From Bacilli bacterium (GTDB lineage: Bacteria > Bacillota_I > Bacilli_A > RFN20 > CAG-826), in contig JAFSOD010000004.1 of the NCBI GenBank assembly GCA_017447165.1, forward strand, positions 653,903-717,902: a stretch of 64,000 nucleotides of DNA, in the 5' to 3' direction. A program made the translations under genes and the position numbers. This document shows positions 5,485 to 63,532 of the stretch, one piece after another; the stretch's first letter is position 1; every line of letters begins with the position of its first letter. Under the pieces are notes generated by a model. It searched no databases, had not been told where the DNA came from, and worked only from the letters and a program-made list of their open reading frames with translations.

Positions 5485-6673
5485 AAGTAAGAAATATTTA
5501 TTAGCATGTTCCTTCGGACCCGACTCCATGACGCTTTTCCATTTGCTTGCTAAAAATAAGTACCATTTTGCCTGTGCAATCGTTAACTATCACCTTAGGG
5601 AAGAAAGCGATTCTGAAGTAATGGGTTTACTTAAATACGCGAAAGAATTTAATGTAAAAGTATACGTCTATGATGTAAAAGAAAAAATCGATAAAAATGT
5701 GGAAACTACATGTAGAGAAATTAGATATAAATTCTTTAAAGACTTATGTGTACAATTTGGTTATGATGCAACTCTCATTGCTCATCATCAAGATGACCTC
5801 ATTGAAACGTATTTAATGCAAAAAGAACGACAAAATAACCCAATTTTTTATGGTATTTCTGCTGAAACAATGATTTATGGAGTTAACGTTATTAGACCTT
5901 TATTAGGTTACAAGAAATCTGAATTACAAAATATTTGTGATGAAAATAACGTCCCATATTCTATCGATAAAACTAACTTTGATATTTCAATTATGAGAAA
6001 CAAAATAAGACACAATGTTGTTTCTAAAATGTTAGAGAGAGATCGCGAACGAATTTTAAGCGAAATTAACGAGGCCAATTCCAAATTAAATGAGATGTTT
6101 AATTCCATTGATATACATAGATTATGCGAAGTTGAATATGTGCTTCAATTAGACTTTACTTCTCAATGTTATGCTTTAAATTATTTGGTAAAAAATATTA
6201 ATCCTTCATTTAGTTTATCTAAAAAGAATGTAGGACAATTAATTAAAATTTTAAAATCACCAAAACCAAATGGTCAGTTCGTTGTTTTTAAAGGATTATA
6301 TTTATTTAAGGAATATGATTTCTTTGAATTCGGAGTTAATAAAGCTGAACCAAGAGAATTTAAATATTCCTTATTATGCCCTGGGATTTTAGACACTCCA
6401 TTTTTCCATTTAAACTTTAAGATGGACACTTCTGATCGAAATATTGATTTTGATGATTATCCTTTAACTATACGAAACATCAAAAAAAGCGACTTTGTTA
6501 TTATCAATGGTTATAAAGCTAAGGCGCAGAGACTTTTAATTGATTGGAAGGTACCGTTTAGAAAAAGAATGGTTTGGCCAGTTATCCTAAACAAAAATGG
6601 TGAAGTTATATATATTCCTCGATACCGTAAAGATTTCAAAATGTCTGATAAACTAAGTTTTTATGTTAAATAG
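5462..6673 (+). CDS. tilS: tRNA(Ile)-lysidine synthetase
   Basis: 403 aa. N-terminal PP-loop ATPase motif (LLACSFGPDSM), HHQDD motif. Precedes ftsH as in Bacillus. Confidence 0.8.
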   Translation: MTLKNLDKSKKYLLACSFGPDSMTLFHLLAKNKYHFACAIVNYHLREESDSEVMGLLKYAKEFNVKVYVYDVKEKIDKNVETTCREIRYKFFKDLCVQFGYDATLIAHHQDDLIETYLMQKERQNNPIFYGISAETMIYGVNVIRPLLGYKKSELQNICDENNVPYSIDKTNFDISIMRNKIRHNVVSKMLERDRERILSEINEANSKLNEMFNSIDIHRLCEVEYVLQLDFTSQCYALNYLVKNINPSFSLSKKNVGQLIKILKSPKPNGQFVVFKGLYLFKEYDFFEFGVNKAEPREFKYSLLCPGILDTPFFHLNFKMDTSDRNIDFDDYPLTIRNIKKSDFVIINGYKAKAQRLLIDWKVPFRKRMVWPVILNKNGEVIYIPRYRKDFKMSDKLSFYVK

Positions 6674-49969: not shown

Positions 49970-51181
49970 CTAATTGAGGCTAGATAATATTGCTTCAACA
50001 AGTTCTTTAGTTTCTATTTTTATAATCCCAAATGTCTTATTTCCAGCATAATTTAAAGATGAACCAATTGAGTAACACTCTTTATCATCAAGTATGATAA
50101 AACGATCATGGAAATCATTATTATTGATTACTGTGATTTTTCCATATTGGACGATAAATTTATTAATTTCTTTAATTGATAAAGTCGAAAAGCGAGATTT
50201 ATAAATTATTCTGTCAACTATAGGAGATACTTTTTTCAAAAAAATTAAGCTTTGATAATCAAAATATGGATCGATAATTATTATTTTATTATTCGCTTTA
50301 GAAACAATTGAAGATATTAATTCATAAGCATCGAACACTTCTCCTTTGAAAACGATTTTCTCTTTTATATAAGAATTATCTTTTACGATGTTTTCAATTT
50401 TATTTTTTAAACTATAAATTTCATTTTCAAGTCTGAGGAAATTATCTGCAGTAACCAGCGCTCGACTTTCATTGATCGAATATCCTTTGATCATATATTC
50501 TTTCAATACATTGGATACCCATTTTCTAAATTCTATTGCCCGTTTTCCTTTGATACGATATCCAATTGCCAAAATCATATCTAGGTTATATTGTTGTACT
50601 AAATATTGCTTTCCATCTAGGGCAGTATGTAAGAAATCCTTACTAACTGAATCAGGCATTAATTCCCCTTCACTAAAGATATTATTGATATGCATTGTAA
50701 TGTTTGGCCTACTAGATTCAAATAGAGAAGCAATTTGATTTTGTGTTAACCAAACAGTGTCCTCTTTTGGATCCACACTTACATCTAAATTGATAGAACC
50801 ATTATTATAAATAATGATATTATTGTTATCTTTGATGTTTAGCGATTCTAAAACAAAAGATTCGAACTTTTTTGTAATGTCTTTATTAATTCTTAATCCT
50901 ATTGTTTTGATAACATCTAAACTATATACAGTTAATGGTTTTTTCTTCGGTAAATTAATAACCATAGATGCAATAGGTGCATTTTTTGCATTTATTGCAC
51001 TTTTGGTAGTGGCGTCAACATTGTAGGTTGACTTGATGGCCCTTCTAATTGTTGTTGCCGCAACATTGAAGAGAGCGGCTATCTCATTGGCAGATAGCCA
51101 GATAGTATTGTCTTCGACAGACACTCTTACATCAAGAGAAAGATCTCCATCTGTAAATTTGATTGTTTCAAAATTAGTCAT
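49970..51181 (-). CDS. RhuM-family protein with tandem N-terminal repeat domains and a C-terminal PLD-like (HKD-variant) domain
   Basis: 403 aa from ATG 51181, with SD GGAGGT 5 nt upstream. Two copies of the RhuM/Fic-N-like module (DNTIWLSANEIAALF and EDTVWLTQNQIASLF), then the RhuM core ILAIGYRIKGKRAIEFRKWVSNVLKEYMIKGYSIN. The C-terminal ~150 aa carries KIIIIDPYFD...FHDRFIILDDKECYSIGSSLN. This resembles the PLD HKD motif HxK(x)4D(x)6GSxN with K replaced by R and one extra residue before GS. Confidence 0.7.
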   Translation of the reverse strand: MTNFETIKFTDGDLSLDVRVSVEDNTIWLSANEIAALFNVAATTIRRAIKSTYNVDATTKSAINAKNAPIASMVINLPKKKPLTVYSLDVIKTIGLRINKDITKKFESFVLESLNIKDNNNIIIYNNGSINLDVSVDPKEDTVWLTQNQIASLFESSRPNITMHINNIFSEGELMPDSVSKDFLHTALDGKQYLVQQYNLDMILAIGYRIKGKRAIEFRKWVSNVLKEYMIKGYSINESRALVTADNFLRLENEIYSLKNKIENIVKDNSYIKEKIVFKGEVFDAYELISSIVSKANNKIIIIDPYFDYQSLIFLKKVSPIVDRIIYKSRFSTLSIKEINKFIVQYGKITVINNNDFHDRFIILDDKECYSIGSSLNYAGNKTFGIIKIETKELVEAILSSLN

Positions 51182-51380
51182 ATAGACCTCCTGTTTCTGG
51201 GGAAAATGAAAATAGAGACGATTTACTCTCAATCCTCCATCCTCATTTATTCCCTTCGAACCCAAAGGTCTCTATATCTTTTCCTCGATTATATTATAGC
51301 ATTTAATGCTATAAATGTATATCAGTATTTAATAAAAGTGCAAAAAAATACAGTACACAATTGTGTACTGTAATATACAA

Positions 51381-52490: not shown

Positions 52491-52739
52491 ATGTTAGCAG
52501 TTAATTATTCAACCTTGAGAAATTCATTGAAATCTTATTGTGATCACGCCACTGACAGTGAGGAAGTAGTGGTTGTAACAAGAAAAGATGAAAAGAATGT
52601 TGTTTTGATGTCTTTGAATCAATATAACGAGATGCTTAAACAGATAAACAACTCTCAGTATCTTAAACTTCTTCAAAAAGCAATTGAGCAAATTAAGAAT
52701 GGAGATGTTGTTATCAAACACCTAAATGATCTTGATTAA
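52491..52739 (+). CDS. Phd/YefM-family antitoxin-like protein (no cognate toxin gene adjacent)
   Basis: 82 aa. N-terminal VNYSTLRNSLKSYCDHA...VVVTRKDEKNVVLMSLNQYN matches the YefM/Phd fold. SD GGAGGT upstream. The 210 bp downstream encodes no toxin-sized ORF in any frame. Confidence 0.6.
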   Translation: MLAVNYSTLRNSLKSYCDHATDSEEVVVVTRKDEKNVVLMSLNQYNEMLKQINNSQYLKLLQKAIEQIKNGDVVIKHLNDLD

Positions 52740-54797: not shown

Positions 54798-54832
54798 AAA
54801 AAAGGTCTTAGCGAACCGCTAAGACCTTTTAG
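54798..54832. terminator. bidirectional intrinsic terminator between hpf and lipoprotein A
   Basis: GGTCTTAGCG-aacc-GCTAAGACC perfect 9-bp stem with A-run 5' and T-run 3'. Confidence 0.7.
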
Positions 54833-54847
54833 TTTGTCTGATTAATA

Positions 54848-56032
54848 TTAATAAACCATTTGATAGACACAGTATTGTGTAACGTAATCCTCACCATCAA
54901 GGTAAGATCCGATTTCCACAAATGTTAAGCTATCTGAATCCATATAAGAAGCAAAGTAGCCATCGTCTCCGTCAAGCCATTGACCTGCTGCAGGAGCTTC
55001 ATATTCATTTAAATATGTTGGTAAGAAATCAATACCTGCCACACATGCTTCTTCTAATGAAGTTACGTCTTCAAAGACGACAGAAATATAAGCTTCACCG
55101 TCTTCCCAATAAATATCACTAGCTGTGTAGCCTAACATATCGCAAATATCTAAAGCGACATCTTCGACAGTTCTTTCGTCTCCACCAGGACCAATTGGGT
55201 CGCCACCAGAAAATGTTCCGGTAACTTTAACTGCAGAAATACGAATTTGTTTTCCTGAACCACTTCCTAAAGTGAAGGTTACAGAACTTGCATCGCCTGT
55301 CCAAACACCAGTTTTAGCAGCATAATCAGCACTAAATGTACCGGAATCTGGATTAAATGCAAAGTTATCATCAATTCTAGTGAATGTGAATTCAATCTTG
55401 GTCATATTATCTGCTGAGAATGTGATGCTGTTATTTGGATATAATCTGATACTAGCGCCAGATGCATAGTATTTTGGATCATTAGAACCACCGTTTTTAC
55501 TAGCGTTGATAGTTAATCCTGGAGCAAGAGTGGTTTCTGAAATAACTTCAGCGTCAGACCAACCATAGTCTTCCATAACGAATTCATATGTTCCAGTAAC
55601 TGGATCGTCTCCGCCTCCGCCTTGTCCTGCAACGTAAACAGCAATTTCATTGCCACATGGGTATAAGTCAGTTGCTTCATACCATTCAGCGTGTAATGTT
55701 AAATCGCCAACTTCGGTTGATTTGGTATAGTTGACGGATCCTTCTTCGGTAACTGGAGTCCAACCAGTTCTAAGTAGTCTATCGCCATAACCATCTAAAA
55801 CGTTTGTTTCAGAATCGTCGCCAATAAAGTATGCGCCTTCATCTTCATTCCAACCATGGTATAAAGTTGCGGTATCAAATTGGACAAATGGTAAAACCAA
55901 GCCTAAATATTCTGTCATTTCTTCTTTGACATCTTGTACCCAGCCGACATCTCCTGAAGGAACAGGATCGTCTCCGCCACAACCTGTAACCGCAAGAGCA
56001 AATAAAGCAGGAAGTATTAAAATTTTCTTCAT
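54848..56032 (-). CDS. acidic surface lipoprotein A (modular, paralog of 57742..59655)
   Basis: 394 aa. Signal peptide plus lipobox MKKILILPALFALAVTGC. Strongly D/E/G/Y/T-rich. N-module VKEEMTEYLGLVLPFVQFD... and C-terminal ..VYQMVY are shared with lipoprotein B. SD AGGAGG. Confidence 0.75.
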   Translation of the reverse strand: MKKILILPALFALAVTGCGGDDPVPSGDVGWVQDVKEEMTEYLGLVLPFVQFDTATLYHGWNEDEGAYFIGDDSETNVLDGYGDRLLRTGWTPVTEEGSVNYTKSTEVGDLTLHAEWYEATDLYPCGNEIAVYVAGQGGGGDDPVTGTYEFVMEDYGWSDAEVISETTLAPGLTINASKNGGSNDPKYYASGASIRLYPNNSITFSADNMTKIEFTFTRIDDNFAFNPDSGTFSADYAAKTGVWTGDASSVTFTLGSGSGKQIRISAVKVTGTFSGGDPIGPGGDERTVEDVALDICDMLGYTASDIYWEDGEAYISVVFEDVTSLEEACVAGIDFLPTYLNEYEAPAAGQWLDGDDGYFASYMDSDSLTFVEIGSYLDGEDYVTQYCVYQMVY

Positions 56033-56241
56033 AAGGCATCCCCTCCTAAAAATATTTACTTAAATAGAATAATATTTATTTTGCTATCTAGCAATAATAA
56101 GTCATCAATTTCAAATAATTGATAAAACTTTTATGTAGTTTTATATAACTTGTGTATAATATTAGCAGTCTCGATATATTAGAAGTTAATTGTCCGTAGG
56201 TGAAGTTATACTTCCCTAATGTATTGAAGGAGGCTAGTATC

Positions 56242-57084
56242 ATGAAAAACATTAATCAATACAATTTTGATATTATTCACGTTGCCACACATTTAAGAGA
56301 CACTCTTGAATATGTTTTACCGCGTGAACACGAAGAAAAGGTTTATAACCAAAGAAAAGAAGTCTTAACCAAAGGTTTATCTAAAGAAACTCCACTTGGA
56401 AAATTCTTAGAAGCCAACAAAGACAAATTCACTGAATTATTAAAGAACTACGACGAATTATTAGAAGAAGTGTATGGAGAAAATTCCACCATCTTAGTGA
56501 AAACTGCTGAAGGTAAAATCAGAGTCGATCACTCTCAACACTTAAGAATCTACGAACTCGTTACCGCGATGATGGAACCAATTAGAGATATCATCTATTT
56601 CCATGTCAATTTAGCGAGAAAACAAAACGAGAATGAACCAGTCATTGAAGAACTTATGCCTTATGACGATAGACAATATCGTTTATTTGCATACCTCTTA
56701 ATGATGCAAGATTTCCAAAAATCATTCTTTGAATTCCAAAAAGTGATGGGAGAAGCAGGTGGAAAACCAACTCCTCAATCTAACTTTATCGTCCAAAACG
56801 AATTATCTAAATATGCGAAGATGTTAAGAAATATCAGAGAGCATACAAGATTCACTGATAATGAAACATTAGATGTTTTAGATAAGTGTTTACAAGTCGT
56901 GGAGATGTCTGAAGGAAGAAGAGATAGAAGAGACAACAAGAACTTCCCAGATTTGTTTAAAGAAGCCTTAGAAGGTGTGAATGCGAAATTCACATTAAAC
57001 GGACCAAAATGGCAAGAGAAGTTCAACAAGGCTCTTCAAGAAATGCTTGCAGATATCCGTAATAACGCTACCGCTAAAGCATAA
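56242..57084 (+). CDS. hypothetical cytoplasmic all-helical protein (no family recognised)
   Basis: 281 aa from ATG 56242, 8 nt after GAAGGAGG. TATAAT -10 at 56155-60. No TM segments. Contains R-x4-H (RNIREH). Confidence 0.6.
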   Translation: MKNINQYNFDIIHVATHLRDTLEYVLPREHEEKVYNQRKEVLTKGLSKETPLGKFLEANKDKFTELLKNYDELLEEVYGENSTILVKTAEGKIRVDHSQHLRIYELVTAMMEPIRDIIYFHVNLARKQNENEPVIEELMPYDDRQYRLFAYLLMMQDFQKSFFEFQKVMGEAGGKPTPQSNFIVQNELSKYAKMLRNIREHTRFTDNETLDVLDKCLQVVEMSEGRRDRRDNKNFPDLFKEALEGVNAKFTLNGPKWQEKFNKALQEMLADIRNNATAKA

Positions 57085-57109
57085 TTCTTTATTTGGAGAA
57101 TAAAAATAT

Positions 57110-57457
57110 ATGAAGAAGAAACTAAAACAACTATCTATTTTTGAAATAATTGCCTACTGTATCTTATTACTCTTAGGCTTATGGGGATTAATCTATACTT
57201 TATTAGGCTTTATTTGTGAATTCTTAAGCATCAATTCTGGACTAAGATACGCAAATAATTACATTAAAAATGTATTTGGAACTGGCTTCCTCACCTGTGG
57301 CTTAATTGTGTTAGGTGTTTCCGTAGTCGCTGCTGTTGTTGTCTTATTAATCAACGCTAAGAAAAGTGATCGTGACTTTGAAAAAGCACAAAGAAGATCG
57401 GCAAGACTTAAGAAAAAACCAGAAGTTGTTGATGCTGAATCTTCTCCAGTTGAATAA
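57110..57457 (+). CDS. small 2-TM membrane protein with basic C-terminal tail
   Basis: 115 aa. Two hydrophobic helices, C-terminal KKSDRDFEKAQRRSARLKKKPE. Lies 26 nt after the previous gene and is followed by a strong terminator. Confidence 0.55.
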   Translation: MKKKLKQLSIFEIIAYCILLLLGLWGLIYTLLGFICEFLSINSGLRYANNYIKNVFGTGFLTCGLIVLGVSVVAAVVVLLINAKKSDRDFEKAQRRSARLKKKPEVVDAESSPVE

Positions 57458-57477
57458 TAAAATTATTAAACTCATAA

Positions 57478-57506
57478 AGCTCTCAAATTATTGAGGGCTT
57501 TTTTAT
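57478..57506 (+). terminator. intrinsic terminator after the 2-gene unit
   Basis: AGCTCTCAA-atta-TTGAGGGCT (9-bp stem, one G·U) followed by T6. Confidence 0.7.
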
Positions 57507-57741
57507 TGCTCTAAAAGGCGATTTAAGAGGTATTTATAAAAAAAGCGTAATGGAACTTGTATTATCTTAAAACGTCTTGTAGAGCCTAATAATAGTGGGC
57601 ATTTCCATTGATATAAAAATATAAGCTTTAATATAGGATGATATGACACAAATATATCATAAATATAAGTAGTGGATATTTTTTTAAAAGCATAATAAAA
57701 GACCCGCCAAACGACGAGTCTAGTATTTGTTTTTTGAATAG

Positions 57742-59655
57742 TTATTCAACAACTTCTGGGTTGCTTGGCCTTTCAATTGTCTCAATTGTGAGGACATTGT
57801 AGACTGAAGATTCATATTCCATTTGATAAACGGTGAAGATAAGTTCGACGCCTTCAAAGGTATAAACTAATTCTTCATATGGAGTACCACTTACGAATGT
57901 ACCAGCGGTCCATTCGCCATCGCTTTCAAAACCAACTAATTTTGCGAGGACAACGATTTGTTCTGGATAGCCTTTAACATATTGCATTGGAACTACTGAT
58001 TCAGCCCAAGCGTTGAAGAATAAGTAGAAATCTGGGCAATCTTCTGTTGAATAATCAGTGACTTCATCCCAAACATCAACCCATTCACCGCTTTCTTCGT
58101 CTTCATAACTAAAGTAATCAGTAATGGCTTTCATAGCGGTTTCAGCAGTCCATTCAGGAATGATTAATTCGCCAGAACATTCAATGTATGCACAGTAGCC
58201 ATCTTGTTCATCATATAAGACGTAGAAGAAGACTTGGAATCCACCTTCAACCCAACCATCAACAACATATGTGTCGATATAAGTCTCAATGTCTTCACCT
58301 TCTGCTCCTTCTGGATCGACAAAGGATAAGTCTTCAGCATAGTAGTAGTAAGATGGGATTGCAGCAGCAATAATAGAACGAGCTTCTGCTAAGGATTCAG
58401 CTTGAATACCAACTGGCATAACAGCACAGGTAGTTGAATCTGGATCACTTGAATGCATAACTTCAGAGGCAGGTAAGCCTAAGTTAAATGCGATCATGTT
58501 AGCGGTTGTTAAGTTGCTAATTCCGTATTGAACAATAGAGGAAGTGAATGTGATTTCGAAGCATGTACCTTCTTCATCACTCCAGTCAACGATAATAACA
58601 GAGGCACCGGTGTCGAACATTTGTAAAACGTATTCATCAGCATCGGTGTAGCCAGCGAGTTGCCATCCAGCTTCAACTAATTCACCAACATAAGCTTTAA
58701 CTTCATCAGCGGTAACGCCATAGGCATAAACGTCTGCTAAGTAGCAACCGTAATCGAAGGTCCAGTCTTCACTATATTCATAGACGACGCCTTCTTGAGC
58801 GGTTTCGAATGCTGGAATTTCGCCAACATCTTCATAGCATTCCTCAAAGAATGCATCAATGTCAGCTTTAGGGAATGTTTCAGTATAGGCGGATTTTAAT
58901 GAGAAATCGAAGTAAATGTAGTTTCCGGCAGCTTCTTCTTCGTCACCTTCACTCCATCCCCAGGCTAATACGAATACTTGGGCTTTGCCTAAATCTTTGT
59001 ATAAGTATTGAAGACCAGAGGAAGTTTCTCTTGCTTCAAATCCAGCTTTGTAGAGTCTCATTTCGTAAGAAACGAGTTTGTTTTCTTCGTTGTCATCATA
59101 AACGAGAGCGGAACCATTTAAGGTGCTTTCCATTTCAACAGAGACACCTAAAGATTCTTTGTTTAAGAAAGCAAATGGTAAGGTTTCACCAAACATGGCT
59201 GCCCATTCGGCTGCAAAATCTGGATCCCAATCACCAGTTGGTTCTTCATTATAGAGGTAATTGAAGTTAATTTCATTACCTGGAGCAACTCCACTGCTTT
59301 CGTCGTAATATGTTAAGCTAAGAGCAACAGAAGCTTTTGAGGTTTCTTTGTAGTAAAGATCTTCATCAGCAGAATACTCAAAGTGAGCTTGTGAAACTAA
59401 TTTCTCAGCATATTCTTCGACTAAATTTTTGTCATTGTCATCATAAGCATAGAAAGCGCCGCCAAATTCATCACTTTCATATGAAAGATGCAATGATTCT
59501 TCGTCTAAATCCAAATAAGGAAGAACTTCACCAATTTCTTGATTCATGAATTCCTTAACTGCACTAGACCAATCTTTTCCTGGAGCTGGGTTTTCGCCAC
59601 ATGATACAGCTAGCATTGCCGCAACTACAGGAACAATTAATGTCTTCATTTTCAT
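57742..59655 (-). CDS. acidic surface lipoprotein B (three tandem N-modules plus C-region)
   Basis: 637 aa from ATG 59655 (MKMKTLIVPVVAAMLAVSC lipobox). SD AAAGGAG upstream. The track's longer N-extension is rejected. The ~70-aa module seen in lipoprotein A recurs three times (..GEVLPYLDLDEESL..YDDNDKNLVEEY.., ..GETLPFAFLNKESL..YDDNEENKLVSY.., ..GEIPAFETAQEGV..). Shares a VYQMEY-type C-terminal motif. Confidence 0.75.
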   Translation of the reverse strand: MKMKTLIVPVVAAMLAVSCGENPAPGKDWSSAVKEFMNQEIGEVLPYLDLDEESLHLSYESDEFGGAFYAYDDNDKNLVEEYAEKLVSQAHFEYSADEDLYYKETSKASVALSLTYYDESSGVAPGNEINFNYLYNEEPTGDWDPDFAAEWAAMFGETLPFAFLNKESLGVSVEMESTLNGSALVYDDNEENKLVSYEMRLYKAGFEARETSSGLQYLYKDLGKAQVFVLAWGWSEGDEEEAAGNYIYFDFSLKSAYTETFPKADIDAFFEECYEDVGEIPAFETAQEGVVYEYSEDWTFDYGCYLADVYAYGVTADEVKAYVGELVEAGWQLAGYTDADEYVLQMFDTGASVIIVDWSDEEGTCFEITFTSSIVQYGISNLTTANMIAFNLGLPASEVMHSSDPDSTTCAVMPVGIQAESLAEARSIIAAAIPSYYYYAEDLSFVDPEGAEGEDIETYIDTYVVDGWVEGGFQVFFYVLYDEQDGYCAYIECSGELIIPEWTAETAMKAITDYFSYEDEESGEWVDVWDEVTDYSTEDCPDFYLFFNAWAESVVPMQYVKGYPEQIVVLAKLVGFESDGEWTAGTFVSGTPYEELVYTFEGVELIFTVYQMEYESSVYNVLTIETIERPSNPEVVE

Positions 59656-59775
59656 AAAGTTTTCGTCTCCTTTCATTAATTTTTTAAAGATTTGTCTATA
59701 AATATATTTATGTATGGAAGTGATTGCAAGCATTTTTTATATAAAGATTGTTACGCACGTGAGATTTTTGTCTTT

Positions 59776-59805
59776 TTTACACAGCAAGATTTTTACTGCT
59801 ATAAT
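59776..59805 (+). promoter_or_regulatory. candidate promoter giving a (near-)leaderless SDR transcript (TTTACA-18-TGcTATAAT)
   Basis: -35 TTTACA 59776-81, extended -10 TGCTATAAT 59797-59805. ATG at 59815 lies only 9 nt past the -10, and there is no SD. Confidence 0.35.
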
Positions 59806-59814
59806 ATATCCGTT

Positions 59815-60594
59815 ATGGTTGTTGTTATTACTGGTGGTAGCAGTGGAATTGGCTTAGAAACTGCTAGGTTATTCTCTCAAAATAAACAATTTATTGTTTA
59901 TGTTTTAAATAGACACGAAGTTAAACTTGATAACGTTAACTGGATTAAATGTGATGTTTCTAACTCAAAAGATATCGCTAATGCAGTTAGTGAAATTACT
60001 AGAGAAGAAAATAATCAAATAAATTTACTAATTAATAATGCTGGAATGGGAATCTCTGGAGCGATTGAGTACCATTCAGAAGAAGAAATTAACAAAATTA
60101 TAAGTGTTAATTTAGTGGGTTTAGTGAATGTTACTAGAGCCTTTTTACCATATATGAATAAGGGTAGTAAGATTATTAATATCTCTAGTGTTGCTGGGCC
60201 TATTTCTATTCCATTTCAAACATTGTATTCAGTCACAAAGGCTGGTGTTTTAGCCTTCTCTAATGGACTTAGGAATGAACTTAGACCATTAGGAATTAAA
60301 GTGACTTCAGTATTACCTGGAGATACAAAAACTGGTTTTACTAGTAGTAGAGAAAAAAGTGTTGATAATGGGCGTTATGGAAAACGTATAGAGAAGTCAG
60401 TTTCCAAAATGGAAAAAGATGAATCTAACGGAGTTCCTGCTAGTAAAGTAGCGAAAAAGATTTTTAAAGTGAGCAAAAAGAAAAACCCAAATACTTATTA
60501 CGTAGTGGGTTCATCTTATAAATTATTAGTCTTTCTTTCCCGTATCTTACCAAAAAGATTAGTGAACTGGATTATATTTAAGATTTACGGTTAG
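59815..60594 (+). CDS. short-chain dehydrogenase/reductase (SDR)
   Basis: 260 aa from ATG 59815. TGGSSGIG Rossmann motif, NNAG, catalytic S..Y...K (SSVAG, YSVTKAG). Confidence 0.7.
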   Translation: MVVVITGGSSGIGLETARLFSQNKQFIVYVLNRHEVKLDNVNWIKCDVSNSKDIANAVSEITREENNQINLLINNAGMGISGAIEYHSEEEINKIISVNLVGLVNVTRAFLPYMNKGSKIINISSVAGPISIPFQTLYSVTKAGVLAFSNGLRNELRPLGIKVTSVLPGDTKTGFTSSREKSVDNGRYGKRIEKSVSKMEKDESNGVPASKVAKKIFKVSKKKNPNTYYVVGSSYKLLVFLSRILPKRLVNWIIFKIYG

Positions 60595-61694
60595 TCTGCA
60601 AAGTCGTAATCTAAGACGACAAAGTAGTGATAATTTGGATGAAGTTCGCTAAGTTCCTTAACAAGCGAATTTTTTGTTTCTTCATTAGTTTTATCATCAA
60701 ACTCGATAATTAAGTCGAATGATACAGTGTTAGTTTCTATATCAACATAGAAGCCGTGTACTTGCTTAATTGAAGGATAATTTTTAACTAGGCGATATAA
60801 GTCTTCTCTAATCTTTTTAACTTCCGGTACAGAAGAGTTAGTGGCGTAGATTCCTACCGTTAAAATTACTCCAAATTTTTCATAGGCCGCGATTGAAATT
60901 TTTCTCGTTAATGGATGAATGTCTTTTGCGGTTAAGTCGTCTCTAACTTCTATATGAATGGAGCCGATTGATCTATTAGGTCCATAGTCATTTAAGATTA
61001 AATCATATGAGCCAATAACTTCTGGGAAGGAATTCACTAATTGTTTAATTCCTAAAGCAATTTCTCTTTCAGCACGTTTACCAACGATACTGCTAATAGC
61101 GTTAAGAAGGAATTCAATACCACTTTTAATGATGAATAAGCCAATAAGAATACCTAAGTAGCCTTCAATATGGACTCCTGCATACATCGCAACTATTGCG
61201 CCTACTAAAGTAGAGGTAGAAAGTAGTGCATCAAATAATGCGTCTACTCCCGAAGCTTTTAGAGCGTCACTATTGGTCTTTTTACTCATCGCTCTAAAGA
61301 ATAAACCGAGAGCGAGTTTAAATAGAATTGCCACACTAATAACAATTAAGCTGACATAAGTATAACTAGCTTGACTACCAGTAATTAAAGAACTAATAGA
61401 TTCATATATAGCCGTACCACCAGCAATTAGAACAATGATTGCCACAATTAGACTAGTGACGTATTCGATACGTCCATGTCCATATGGGTGGTCTTTATCT
61501 GGTTTTTTAGTAGAAAGTTTAGTGCCGATAACAGTAACAATACTACTTAAAGCATCAGTTAAGTTATTGACCGCGTCTAAGATAATAGAAATAGATCCGG
61601 CAATAATACCAATAGTGGCTTTAGCGGCGACAAGCAAAACATTACCTAAAATGCCAATAATACTTGTACGGATAATGAGTTTTTCTCTATTCAT
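60591..61694 (-). CDS. cation diffusion facilitator (CDF) family metal efflux transporter
   Basis: 367 aa. 6 TM helices with CDF signature (..DA..N..D..S......HPYGHGR.E) and a cytoplasmic C-terminal domain. 4-nt convergent overlap with the SDR stop. Confidence 0.8.
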   Translation of the reverse strand: MNREKLIIRTSIIGILGNVLLVAAKATIGIIAGSISIILDAVNNLTDALSSIVTVIGTKLSTKKPDKDHPYGHGRIEYVTSLIVAIIVLIAGGTAIYESISSLITGSQASYTYVSLIVISVAILFKLALGLFFRAMSKKTNSDALKASGVDALFDALLSTSTLVGAIVAMYAGVHIEGYLGILIGLFIIKSGIEFLLNAISSIVGKRAEREIALGIKQLVNSFPEVIGSYDLILNDYGPNRSIGSIHIEVRDDLTAKDIHPLTRKISIAAYEKFGVILTVGIYATNSSVPEVKKIREDLYRLVKNYPSIKQVHGFYVDIETNTVSFDLIIEFDDKTNEETKNSLVKELSELHPNYHYFVVLDYDFAD

Positions 61695-62692: not shown

Positions 62693-63532
62693 GTGGAGAT
62701 GAATGTTAAAAAGTATTTAACTAAAATTGAAGACTTATCTCATAAGAAGATTGCTCTTACTGGTGCCACATCCGGAATTGGTCTAGCTCTTTTAAAACAC
62801 TTAGTAAGCAAAAACGCTTATGTTGTTTTACTTGTAAGAAACTTAACTAAGGCTAAAGAAATAGTGGGTTCTTTGAACTATTCAAAGATTGATATCATTG
62901 AGTATGACCAATCCTCTTATAAATCTATAGAAAAAGCGATTGATGAGTTATTAGTTAAACATAGCGATATCGACACGATTGTTCTTAACGCGGGTGTGTT
63001 ATCTAAAAAAGGAATAACTGAAGAAGGATACTCTTTAACTATTGGAGTGAATTATTTTGGAGTGAGACACTTTATTGAATATATTTCTCCTAAACTAACT
63101 AAAGAAACAAAAATCGTGATTCAAGGATCTTTAACTGCGGGGGCAAGATTATCAAAGAAAACTGATATCACCCGTACTGATTATGGAATCTTTAAACAGT
63201 ACAATACTTCTAAGATTTATTTGGAAGCTTATTTTAATAAGCTAGTAAAAGATAACTCTTATCCATTAATTAGTTATGTCTTAACAGAACCTGGCATATC
63301 TTCTACTAGAATATCGAGAAACTTACCAAAAGTGGTGTACGCTTTAGGTAAAGTCTTTTTGCCTATCGTTTTTAGTACTCCAAGAAAAGCTAGCTTAACT
63401 TTATTAACAGGTATTAGTGATAAGTCTAAAAACGGGGACTTTATTGTCCCTAGAGGAATCTACAATATGTCGGGATTCCCTAAATATAAAAAATTCCCTC
63501 CAAAACGGGAGAGGGAATATTTATTTGAATAG
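62693..63532 (+). CDS. short-chain dehydrogenase/reductase (SDR)
   Basis: 279 aa. TGATSGIGLAL, NAG, S..Y..SK. Start uncertain (GTG 62693 vs ATG 62699). Confidence 0.7.
   Translation: MEMNVKKYLTKIEDLSHKKIALTGATSGIGLALLKHLVSKNAYVVLLVRNLTKAKEIVGSLNYSKIDIIEYDQSSYKSIEKAIDELLVKHSDIDTIVLNAGVLSKKGITEEGYSLTIGVNYFGVRHFIEYISPKLTKETKIVIQGSLTAGARLSKKTDITRTDYGIFKQYNTSKIYLEAYFNKLVKDNSYPLISYVLTEPGISSTRISRNLPKVVYALGKVFLPIVFSTPRKASLTLLTGISDKSKNGDFIVPRGIYNMSGFPKYKKFPPKREREYLFE

Follow-up and report, generated by a model that had tools for sequence, protein, structure and literature searches.

The window analysed here was a stretch of 64,000 nucleotides (positions 653,903 to 717,902 of the forward strand of contig JAFSOD010000004.1, assembly GCA_017447165.1, Bacilli bacterium), a segment of low GC content (about 33%) that was dense in housekeeping genes, namely mfd, ftsH, lysS, argS, metK and the genes of RNase Y and HPF. 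Two minus-strand genes, A and B, were located there on either side of a pair of plus-strand genes. Gene A (54848-56032) was an open reading frame (ORF) for an acidic lipoprotein of 394 amino acids (aa) with three domains, for which 35 homologues were found, one of them 100% identical and labelled 'MAG: Bacilli bacterium', and gene B (57742-59655) was an ORF for an acidic lipoprotein of 637 aa with five tandem alpha/beta domains, for which seven homologues were found. Based on domain analysis and comparison with related genomes, the A/B locus is best described as a replacement-type locus of variable, predicted surface lipoproteins whose building block is an uncatalogued domain. With a probability of roughly 0.6, A and B were considered to be coat or binding proteins that are exposed on a lipid anchor and that diversify, by replacement of alleles and cassettes, under selection against being recognised.

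The protein of gene A started with MKKILILPALFALAVTGC and that of gene B with MKMKTLIVPVVAAMLAVSC. The reading frame of B was open up to 59733, and its start was set at the ATG at 59655 because an AAAGGAG sequence lay 11 nt ahead of this codon and the homologues aligned from there. Lipoproteins were recognised by an N-terminal signal peptide ending in [LVI][ASTVI][GAS]C, and both proteins carried one, basic and hydrophobic with the lipobox at its end: LAVTGC in A (residues 1-18; 55979-56032, minus strand; read from the sequence, with a weak LPAM_1 match) and LAVSC in B (residues 1-19; 59599-59655, minus strand), the latter forming the conserved 5' boundary of a variable region. The lipobox cysteine (C18 in A) was invariant in the alignments, in 32 of 32 homologues of A and 7 of 7 of B, and A and B were the sole clear lipoproteins in a rule-based scan of the whole window. 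Asp and Glu accounted for 17% of the residues in A and 20% in B, Lys and Arg for about 4% in both, and the computed isoelectric points were about 4; Tyr made up 6.6% of A and 8.2% of B, and Gly 11.7% of A. The original prediction, which was made from the DNA letters alone and had proposed two strongly acidic proteins of 394 and 637 aa encoded on the minus strand, each with a signal peptide and lipobox, was thus confirmed in these respects. A bidirectional terminator hairpin with a 14-bp stem and T-runs on either strand (54800-54830, both strands) was common to the HPF gene and A, and a terminator-like hairpin was located 3' of B (57700-57721, minus strand).

Architecture of A and B and the wider module family

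The domains of the two proteins were delimited by sequence comparison and AlphaFold2 models, whose mean predicted local distance difference test (pLDDT) values were 80 for A and 68 for B. All of them were encoded on the minus strand. Protein A started with the shared alpha/beta module of about 110 aa, AN (residues 27-137; 55622-55954), followed by an all-beta sandwich, AM (residues 143-277; 55202-55606), and a C-terminal alpha/beta domain, AC (residues 288-394; 54851-55171), which was the most variable portion of A and subject to cassette exchange. Protein B consisted of three module copies, B1 (residues 26-138; 59242-59580), B2 (residues 139-256; 58888-59241) and the divergent B3 (residues 257-375; 58531-58887), then B4 (residues 376-497; 58165-58530), an alpha/beta domain of a second sequence type, and the distal B5 (residues 498-628; 57772-58164), the most variable domain and modelled with lower confidence. 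In the models, all seven alpha/beta domains of A and B were predicted to run in one common order through a helix, two strands, a second helix and four strands. The five-domain layout of B was common to the five full-length allele classes that were aligned.

The relationship of the module copies was supported by several kinds of alignment. By BLASTP, A3-144 matched B4-145 with 30% identity (E = 7e-15), and a second, weaker segment joined A25-91 and B139-206 (E = 0.001). Profile-profile comparison by hhalign gave E-values of 6.6e-23 for B1 and AN, 1.8e-17 for B1 and B2, 4e-15 for B2 and AN, 9e-5 for B2 and B3, and 5.5e-4 for B1 and B3. A hidden Markov model (HMM) trained solely on database modules whose identity to every module of the window was below 35%, and therefore non-circular, matched A31-135 (66 bits), B26-132 (66 bits), B140-251 (54 bits) and B259-370 (27.5 bits), compared with 9.7 bits for the best of 400 composition-matched shuffles. 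The repeats were therefore significant on proper alignment, and the predicted numbers of module copies, one in A and three in B, held with the independent HMM; the predicted length of about 70 aa did not, as the module covers about 105-115 aa. Beyond this set, the only further sequence link was that between B4 and AC (hhalign, E = 2.8e-5 over 52 columns), and B5 had no significant link to any other domain in the profile-profile comparison. The C-terminal motif VYQM(V/E)Y, which had been noticed in both proteins, does occur in both, but it was not conserved among the B orthologues and the comparison of B5 with AC was non-significant. It was thus rejected as a family motif, and its sharing by A and B is probably due to chance.

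A recent duplication of the module had also been suggested. However, the copies inside B were only 20-30% identical to one another, and no DNA-level repeats were detected in the A/B region, where Tandem Repeats Finder (TRF) reported no arrays between 54700 and 59900 and only short two-copy direct repeats at chance level were present. Given the lack of DNA similarity between the copies and the layout of B common to the aligned classes, recent duplication was rejected and the module copies must be old. No further copies of the module or of the other domains were detected by the domain HMMs elsewhere in the window.

Searching the module profile against 1.84 billion representative proteins retrieved 395 matches at E ≤ 1e-3 and 169 at E ≤ 1e-10. 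The module thus occurs in at least 395 clusters of proteins (50% identity), whose architectures are diverse, with up to 14 matched module stretches in a single protein. The earlier proposal of a lineage-specific family was therefore not supported. Most of the 144 listed members that were examined started with a signal peptide and lipobox, and their contents of Asp plus Glu (11-25%) and Lys plus Arg (mostly 2-8%) were recorded. Ten members looked up by cluster were all metagenome or metagenome-assembled genome (MAG) sequences, and the profile search of genome contigs with a narrowed module alignment found four loci, all from rumen MAGs; the related MAGs were labelled rumen 'Erysipelotrichaceae' or 'Bacillales UBA3835'. 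A match to a well-characterised lipoprotein family, which would have argued against the surface-family proposal, was absent from Pfam and NCBIfam. Searches of Pfam, NCBIfam, PADLOC and PHROGs with A, B and the two proteins encoded between them gave nothing above noise. Of 48 modules taken in isolation, none reached a Pfam or NCBIfam threshold, and PDB sequences gave no meaningful match to two module profiles. Weak matches to Pfam DUF2812 were obtained for 3 of the 48 isolated modules (best E = 4e-4) and 3 of 77 full-length family members (best E = 5e-7). Most modules, including all those of the window, differed in lacking this match, which would explain nothing because DUF2812 is itself uncharacterised. 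The module of about 110 aa is a domain family that is absent from Pfam and NCBIfam and has no sequence relative in the PDB.

Among the 77 family members, the Pfam domains co-occurring with the module were only Big_2, Big_3, Flg_new, Collagen repeats and a few DUFs. The named domains were all of the cell-surface type, with no enzyme among them. Such partners are typical of adhesins, and a stalk of repeated modules with a variable domain at its far end would also suit proteins that attach to plant particles, host mucus or partner microbes, with the allele classes serving different targets. On the other hand, nothing in A or B marked a receptor-binding domain, and the strong overall negative charge would be unusual for sticking to anionic plant or host surfaces. 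Attachment as the role of A and B was thus judged improbable, and it overlaps with the favoured explanation of diversifying coat or binding proteins rather than excluding it.

Structural neighbours were searched by Foldseek against PDB and BFVD with whole-protein models as queries, and such multi-domain queries dilute the signal. The hits were local and non-significant and included DcrB (6e8a; probability 0.99, 94 columns, TM-score 0.40), PsbP (probability 0.97) and SciW/EagT6 (probability 0.87-0.91), with E-values of 0.04-0.19 and TM-scores of 0.35-0.40. DcrB, PsbP and the DUF1795 chaperones belong to the Mog1p/PsbP-like group (PMC7716261), and DcrB (DUF1795) resembles the module in being a small alpha/beta domain on a lipid anchor. 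Differently from what would be expected of members of this group, no sequence or profile match to Mog1p, PsbP or DcrB was obtained for A, B and the 48 modules in Pfam, or for the two module profiles in the PDB. A Mog1p/PsbP-like fold of the module may serve as a lead only and is not an assignment.

The sandwich AM was all-beta over residues 145-274 of the model with block pLDDT values of 84-96, a beta sandwich of the type found in carbohydrate-binding modules (CBMs), and it was the best-conserved portion of A, with invariant G/W/P/Y/R/L/Y/N columns in the alignment and the signature PKYY..G..IRLY..N. Its Foldseek neighbours were heterogeneous, with E-values above 1e-3, and comprised accessory domains of glycoside hydrolases, IFT25, CUB domains, and phage lectin and tail-fibre domains. 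Against Pfam, nothing was found at E ≤ 10 except Lipocalin_4 at 0.06, and no defined CBM family was matched; the profile search with AM returned only 12 short unannotated proteins. The signature recurred at the C-terminus of P0042, which also carries the module, and at the C-termini of P0033-P0035. The latter three were lipoproteins of about 575 aa (P0033 is an N-terminally truncated copy of 550 aa) with three oligonucleotide/oligosaccharide-binding (OB)-fold domains (PF01336 / tRNA_anti_2) and a signal peptide that looks Bacteroidota-like. They resembled A in ending with a sandwich of the form PKYY..G..(I/M)RLY..N..T, as in AM, and differed from it in having three OB folds and no alpha/beta module, the full-length match being marginal (E about 9e-4). 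The pairing of a nucleic-acid-binding fold with an AM-like sandwich was an unexpected combination.

Variation among related genomes

The homologous chromosomal region was taken from at least nine related assemblies and compared with the window. The PTAC-domain protein (PF06130), TSCPD, MetK, HPF, CDF, MarR and GPx proteins were mostly 92-99% identical to those of the window, compared with 44-90% for A and 32-41% for B, except for 95% for B in L017. In L016, MetK was 98.7% and HPF 99.5% identical and the DNA about 90% identical across the region, and nucleotide identity decreased to 47-63% over 57500-59499, the body of B, and returned to 86% in the bin 59500-59699, which holds the signal-peptide end of B. 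The eight B sequences fell into at least six allele classes, which were 35-52% identical to each other. B therefore presents the picture of a replacement-type locus, with the same position, flanks of about 90% DNA identity, a gene body of about 50% and at least six classes. In divergence, A and B greatly exceeded all other genes of the syntenic block, which is otherwise 92-99% conserved, and this fits well with the earlier suggestion of variable antigens.

Nonsynonymous divergence was raised in B, and its variability grew with distance from the lipid anchor. The ratios of nonsynonymous to synonymous substitutions (dN/dS, Nei-Gojobori) were 0.01-0.08 for most core neighbours and at most 0.27 for two SDR genes and the two-transmembrane-helix (2-TM) gene between A and B, compared with 0.16-0.26 for A and 0.41 within and 0.40-0.62 between classes of B, and the dN of B reached 0.6-0.8 versus 0.005-0.13 in the neighbours. 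Between classes, the mean identity of B decreased from 95% in the signal peptide to 50% in B1, 35% in B2, 32% in B3, 33% in B4 and 25% in B5, an anchor-to-tip gradient. In A, the mean pairwise identity was highest in AM (64%) and lowest in AC (47%).

Gene and module content also differed, as revealed by the comparison among relatives that had been suggested as a check for copy-number or module-number variation. B was missing from the close relative L021, in which an SDR gene followed about 30 nt after the 2-TM gene, and the A slot of L030 was occupied by a 518-aa lipoprotein with four modules. A short form of A without the N-terminal module was present in L007, L015 and L021. In L015, a separate ORF of 149 aa (2410-2859) was located just downstream of the short A and was 33% identical to B residues 3-135, which span the signal peptide and B1. 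Apparently, the module can also form a gene by itself. The full A of L006 and the short A of L007 came from one rumen metagenome (JGI 3300028591); their core genes differ too, and the two may be separate species.

These patterns also bear on another explanation, in which A and B capture nutrients or glycans, like solute-binding or surface glycan-binding proteins, and their variation tracks substrates. Such a role would agree with the well-conserved sandwich of A and its invariant aromatic and Arg positions, with its weak structural neighbours, which include glycoside hydrolase sandwich domains and lectin-like proteins of phages, and with the rumen habitat given in the RUG MAG titles. However, no transporter or glycoside hydrolase gene adjoined A or B in the window and the related loci examined, no CBM or solute-binding family was matched, and B has no sandwich domain at all. 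The anchor-to-tip gradient, the low identity between alleles (35-52%) and the loss of B in L021 are also unlike a dedicated uptake component, and substrate capture, one of the roles originally suggested, was regarded as improbable as the cause of the variation.

As for how the variation arises, the A alleles were mosaic. P0030 and P0032 were 93% identical in the sandwich and 33% in the C-terminal domain, and P0030 and P0017 were 96% identical in the C-terminal domain and 47% in the sandwich, with the junction at the conserved linker KVTGTFSGG. Compared with L017, dS was 0.06 in B, 0.08-0.12 from the 280-aa gene between A and B to the CDF gene (56242-61694), and 0.18-0.25 further out. This trough suggests that a tract of roughly 5 kb, with B at its centre, was recently exchanged by recombination. 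The signs of recombination at the locus were thus the dS trough, the mosaic A alleles, and the presence/absence and slot replacement, each from one or a few comparisons. Phase variation was rejected as a source, as there were no inverted repeats flanking either promoter, no upstream repeat tracts and no recombinase among the neighbours. Point-mutation switches would play no part in the diversity of A and B.

Conserved genes between A and B and other neighbours

Two plus-strand genes were located between A and B. The first (56242-57084) encoded a conserved orphan cytoplasmic protein of 280 aa, and its start was placed at the ATG at 56242 behind a GGAGG ribosome-binding site, rather than at the GTG at 56200; upstream of 56242, TGTGTATAAT formed an extended -10 element, which was absent from the list of the promoter scan. 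The second (57110-57457) encoded a protein of 115 aa with two predicted transmembrane helices and was followed by a terminator-like hairpin (57476-57501, plus strand). The two plus-strand genes originally predicted between A and B are real. In close relatives, the 280-aa protein was 93-99.6% and the 2-TM protein 76-97% identical. In distant relatives, the 280-aa protein was still 70-82% identical and its gene always adjoined the HPF gene. The gene order in L025-L027 was HPF gene, 280-aa gene, 2-TM gene and CDF gene with neither A nor B, and in L028 and L031, which are shorter contigs, A was absent and the order agreed with that of L025-L027 as far as the contigs reach.

Given the presence of this pair without A and B in distant relatives, it is a conserved core unit. 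The view of a small accessory locus including the two-gene unit could not be maintained, as the pair is core and occurs without A and B, and B is missing in L021; a functional, operon-like unit of four genes was rejected for the same reason. Instead, the gene orders indicate that A and B fill two variable slots flanking a conserved core pair, and their gain in the subclade of the window, rather than loss elsewhere, would be the simpler inference. The distant lipoprotein P0042, with the module and an AM-like sandwich, was encoded in an unrelated context and adjoined ribosomal-protein and toxin-antitoxin genes, and the pair was absent there. A mobile-element origin of the middle genes was also rejected, as the 280-aa protein had no tblastn match in phage and plasmid collections; among PDB sequences, no meaningful match to this protein was found. 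The 280-aa and 2-TM genes, which rank among the best conserved in the region, are thus also orphans, unrelated to the flanking lipoproteins, which calls for caution in annotation.

Several other features were observed around these genes. A 17-nt inverted repeat with 16 of 17 positions complementary (57416-57432 / 57746-57762) was located where the 2-TM gene and B converge, with one copy in the 3' end of each gene. Both copies encode PEVV near the C-terminus, and the repeat may be a coincidence or the trace of a recombination boundary. The SDR gene at 62693-63532 (plus strand) was 88% identical in L016 and only 57-61% in L005, L006 and L021, with neighbours above 90%, and is another locally divergent or replaced gene. 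A RhuM-family gene (49970-51265, minus strand) and a PhdYeFM antitoxin-like ORF (52491-52739, plus strand) were located amid the housekeeping genes. The antitoxin was called in L001 and L017 and not in L005 or L006, the RhuM gene varied from 311 to 432 aa across loci, and both are small accessory insertions.

Interpretation and comparison with known systems

Variable surface lipoproteins built from short, low-complexity tandem repeats, such as Vsp, Vlp, Vsa and VlhA of Mycoplasma, form multigene families with on/off switches, which act by homopolymer tracts, invertible promoters and recombinases. A and B resemble them in being lipid-anchored and repeat-built, in belonging to low-GC bacteria and in varying strongly between close relatives. 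They differ in consisting of folded domains of about 110 aa, in lacking DNA-level repeats and a switch motif, in having no additional paralogue within the 64 kb, and in varying by allele or cassette replacement at a fixed locus. At the OspC-type loci of Borrelia, the alleles of a single-copy surface lipoprotein gene fall into several deeply divergent classes, between which recombination mediates exchange, and B is likewise one locus with divergent, recombining allele classes, here between related genomes. The fold and the organism are unrelated, and OspC alleles differ far less than the B classes with their 35-52% identity. Flexible ('replacement') genomic islands have been described with conserved flanks, distantly related content and nearby clusters of recombination, and a link to phage recognition has been proposed (PMC3542563). 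The A/B locus likewise has a fixed position, conserved flanks and distantly related content. Differently, such islands are usually multi-gene clusters for glycans or appendages (PMC3542563), whereas each slot here holds a single lipoprotein gene, and the boundary in B lies inside the gene, just past the signal peptide.

Exposed surface proteins are suggested by the lipobox, by the acidic stalk of modules and by the surface-type domains that accompany the module across its family, in agreement with the surface-protein reading of the original prediction. The sharp edges of the hypervariable region, the gradient along B, the exchange of cassettes and the variable presence of the genes point the same way, and together they suggest that A and B diversify because recognition is selected against. 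A and B would be anchored to the outside of the cell membrane in an uncultured rumen bacterium of the class Bacilli, each as a string of compact acidic domains projecting from the N-terminal lipidated cysteine. In A, the single module would be followed by the conserved sandwich, which is probably ligand-binding and suggests that A binds something as well, and then by a variable alpha/beta cap. Phages would be the most plausible agents avoided by this diversification, and host antibody or predators possible ones. Homologous recombination in the signal-peptide end and the flanking core genes may replace B, and homologous recombination in the KVTGTFSGG linker may replace the cassettes of A.

Several points weigh against this explanation. 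The gene-wide dN/dS ratios were below 1, so that part of the signal could stem from relaxed constraint. The sole segment with dN/dS above 1 was B2 compared with L017, with 12 nonsynonymous and 1 synonymous changes, which was non-significant (about 0.2 in a hand-calculated binomial test). The B orthologue of L016 (5351-7267) has an in-frame TAA at 6593-6595, which divides it into ORFs of 414 and 216 aa. Pseudogenisation, a truncated product in two parts or a fault of the assembly may explain this. The compared genomes, with about 90% DNA identity, may be sister species rather than strains. The between-class dS of B (1.2-1.5 versus mostly 0.3-0.9 in the flanks) is saturated and alignment-dependent, so that B alleles older than the genomes carrying them can be proposed only tentatively. 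Finally, the fold assignments were weak, with Foldseek E-values above 1e-3 for all relevant domains.

In particular, the raised dN/dS below 1, the in-frame stop in L016, the lack of B in L021 and the lack of both genes in more distant relatives would be expected if A and B were dispensable genes drifting under relaxed constraint toward loss, with their variability as neutral decay. But seven of the eight B sequences were intact ORFs of 637-674 aa, and in the five aligned full-length classes the layout of five domains was kept and the signal peptide and lipobox were nearly invariant; relaxed constraint alone is therefore unlikely. The module family is also kept in hundreds of intact lipoproteins, and exchange of alleles, rather than decay in place, is indicated by the mosaic A alleles and by the abrupt boundaries of the divergence. 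Neutral decay was accordingly considered very improbable, and diversification of exposed coat or binding proteins was preferred.

A broader extension of the preferred explanation was considered possible, though less probable than otherwise. The module may represent a large undescribed family of coat lipoproteins of uncultured host-associated Bacilli, in which B would behave like a serotype, with old alleles kept by negative frequency-dependent selection, for example by phages using B as a receptor, and recombining between lineages through the conserved signal-peptide end and core-gene flanks.

The module family builds hundreds of predicted lipoproteins, and both a formal definition as a family and a determined structure would be worthwhile. 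For Bacilli of the rumen and gut that are uncultured, the cell surface is little known, and the A/B locus bears on that gap. B is a clear case of single-gene hypervariability of the replacement type, and it is usable as a marker for strain typing and for studies of phage-host and host-immune interactions in rumen metagenomes.

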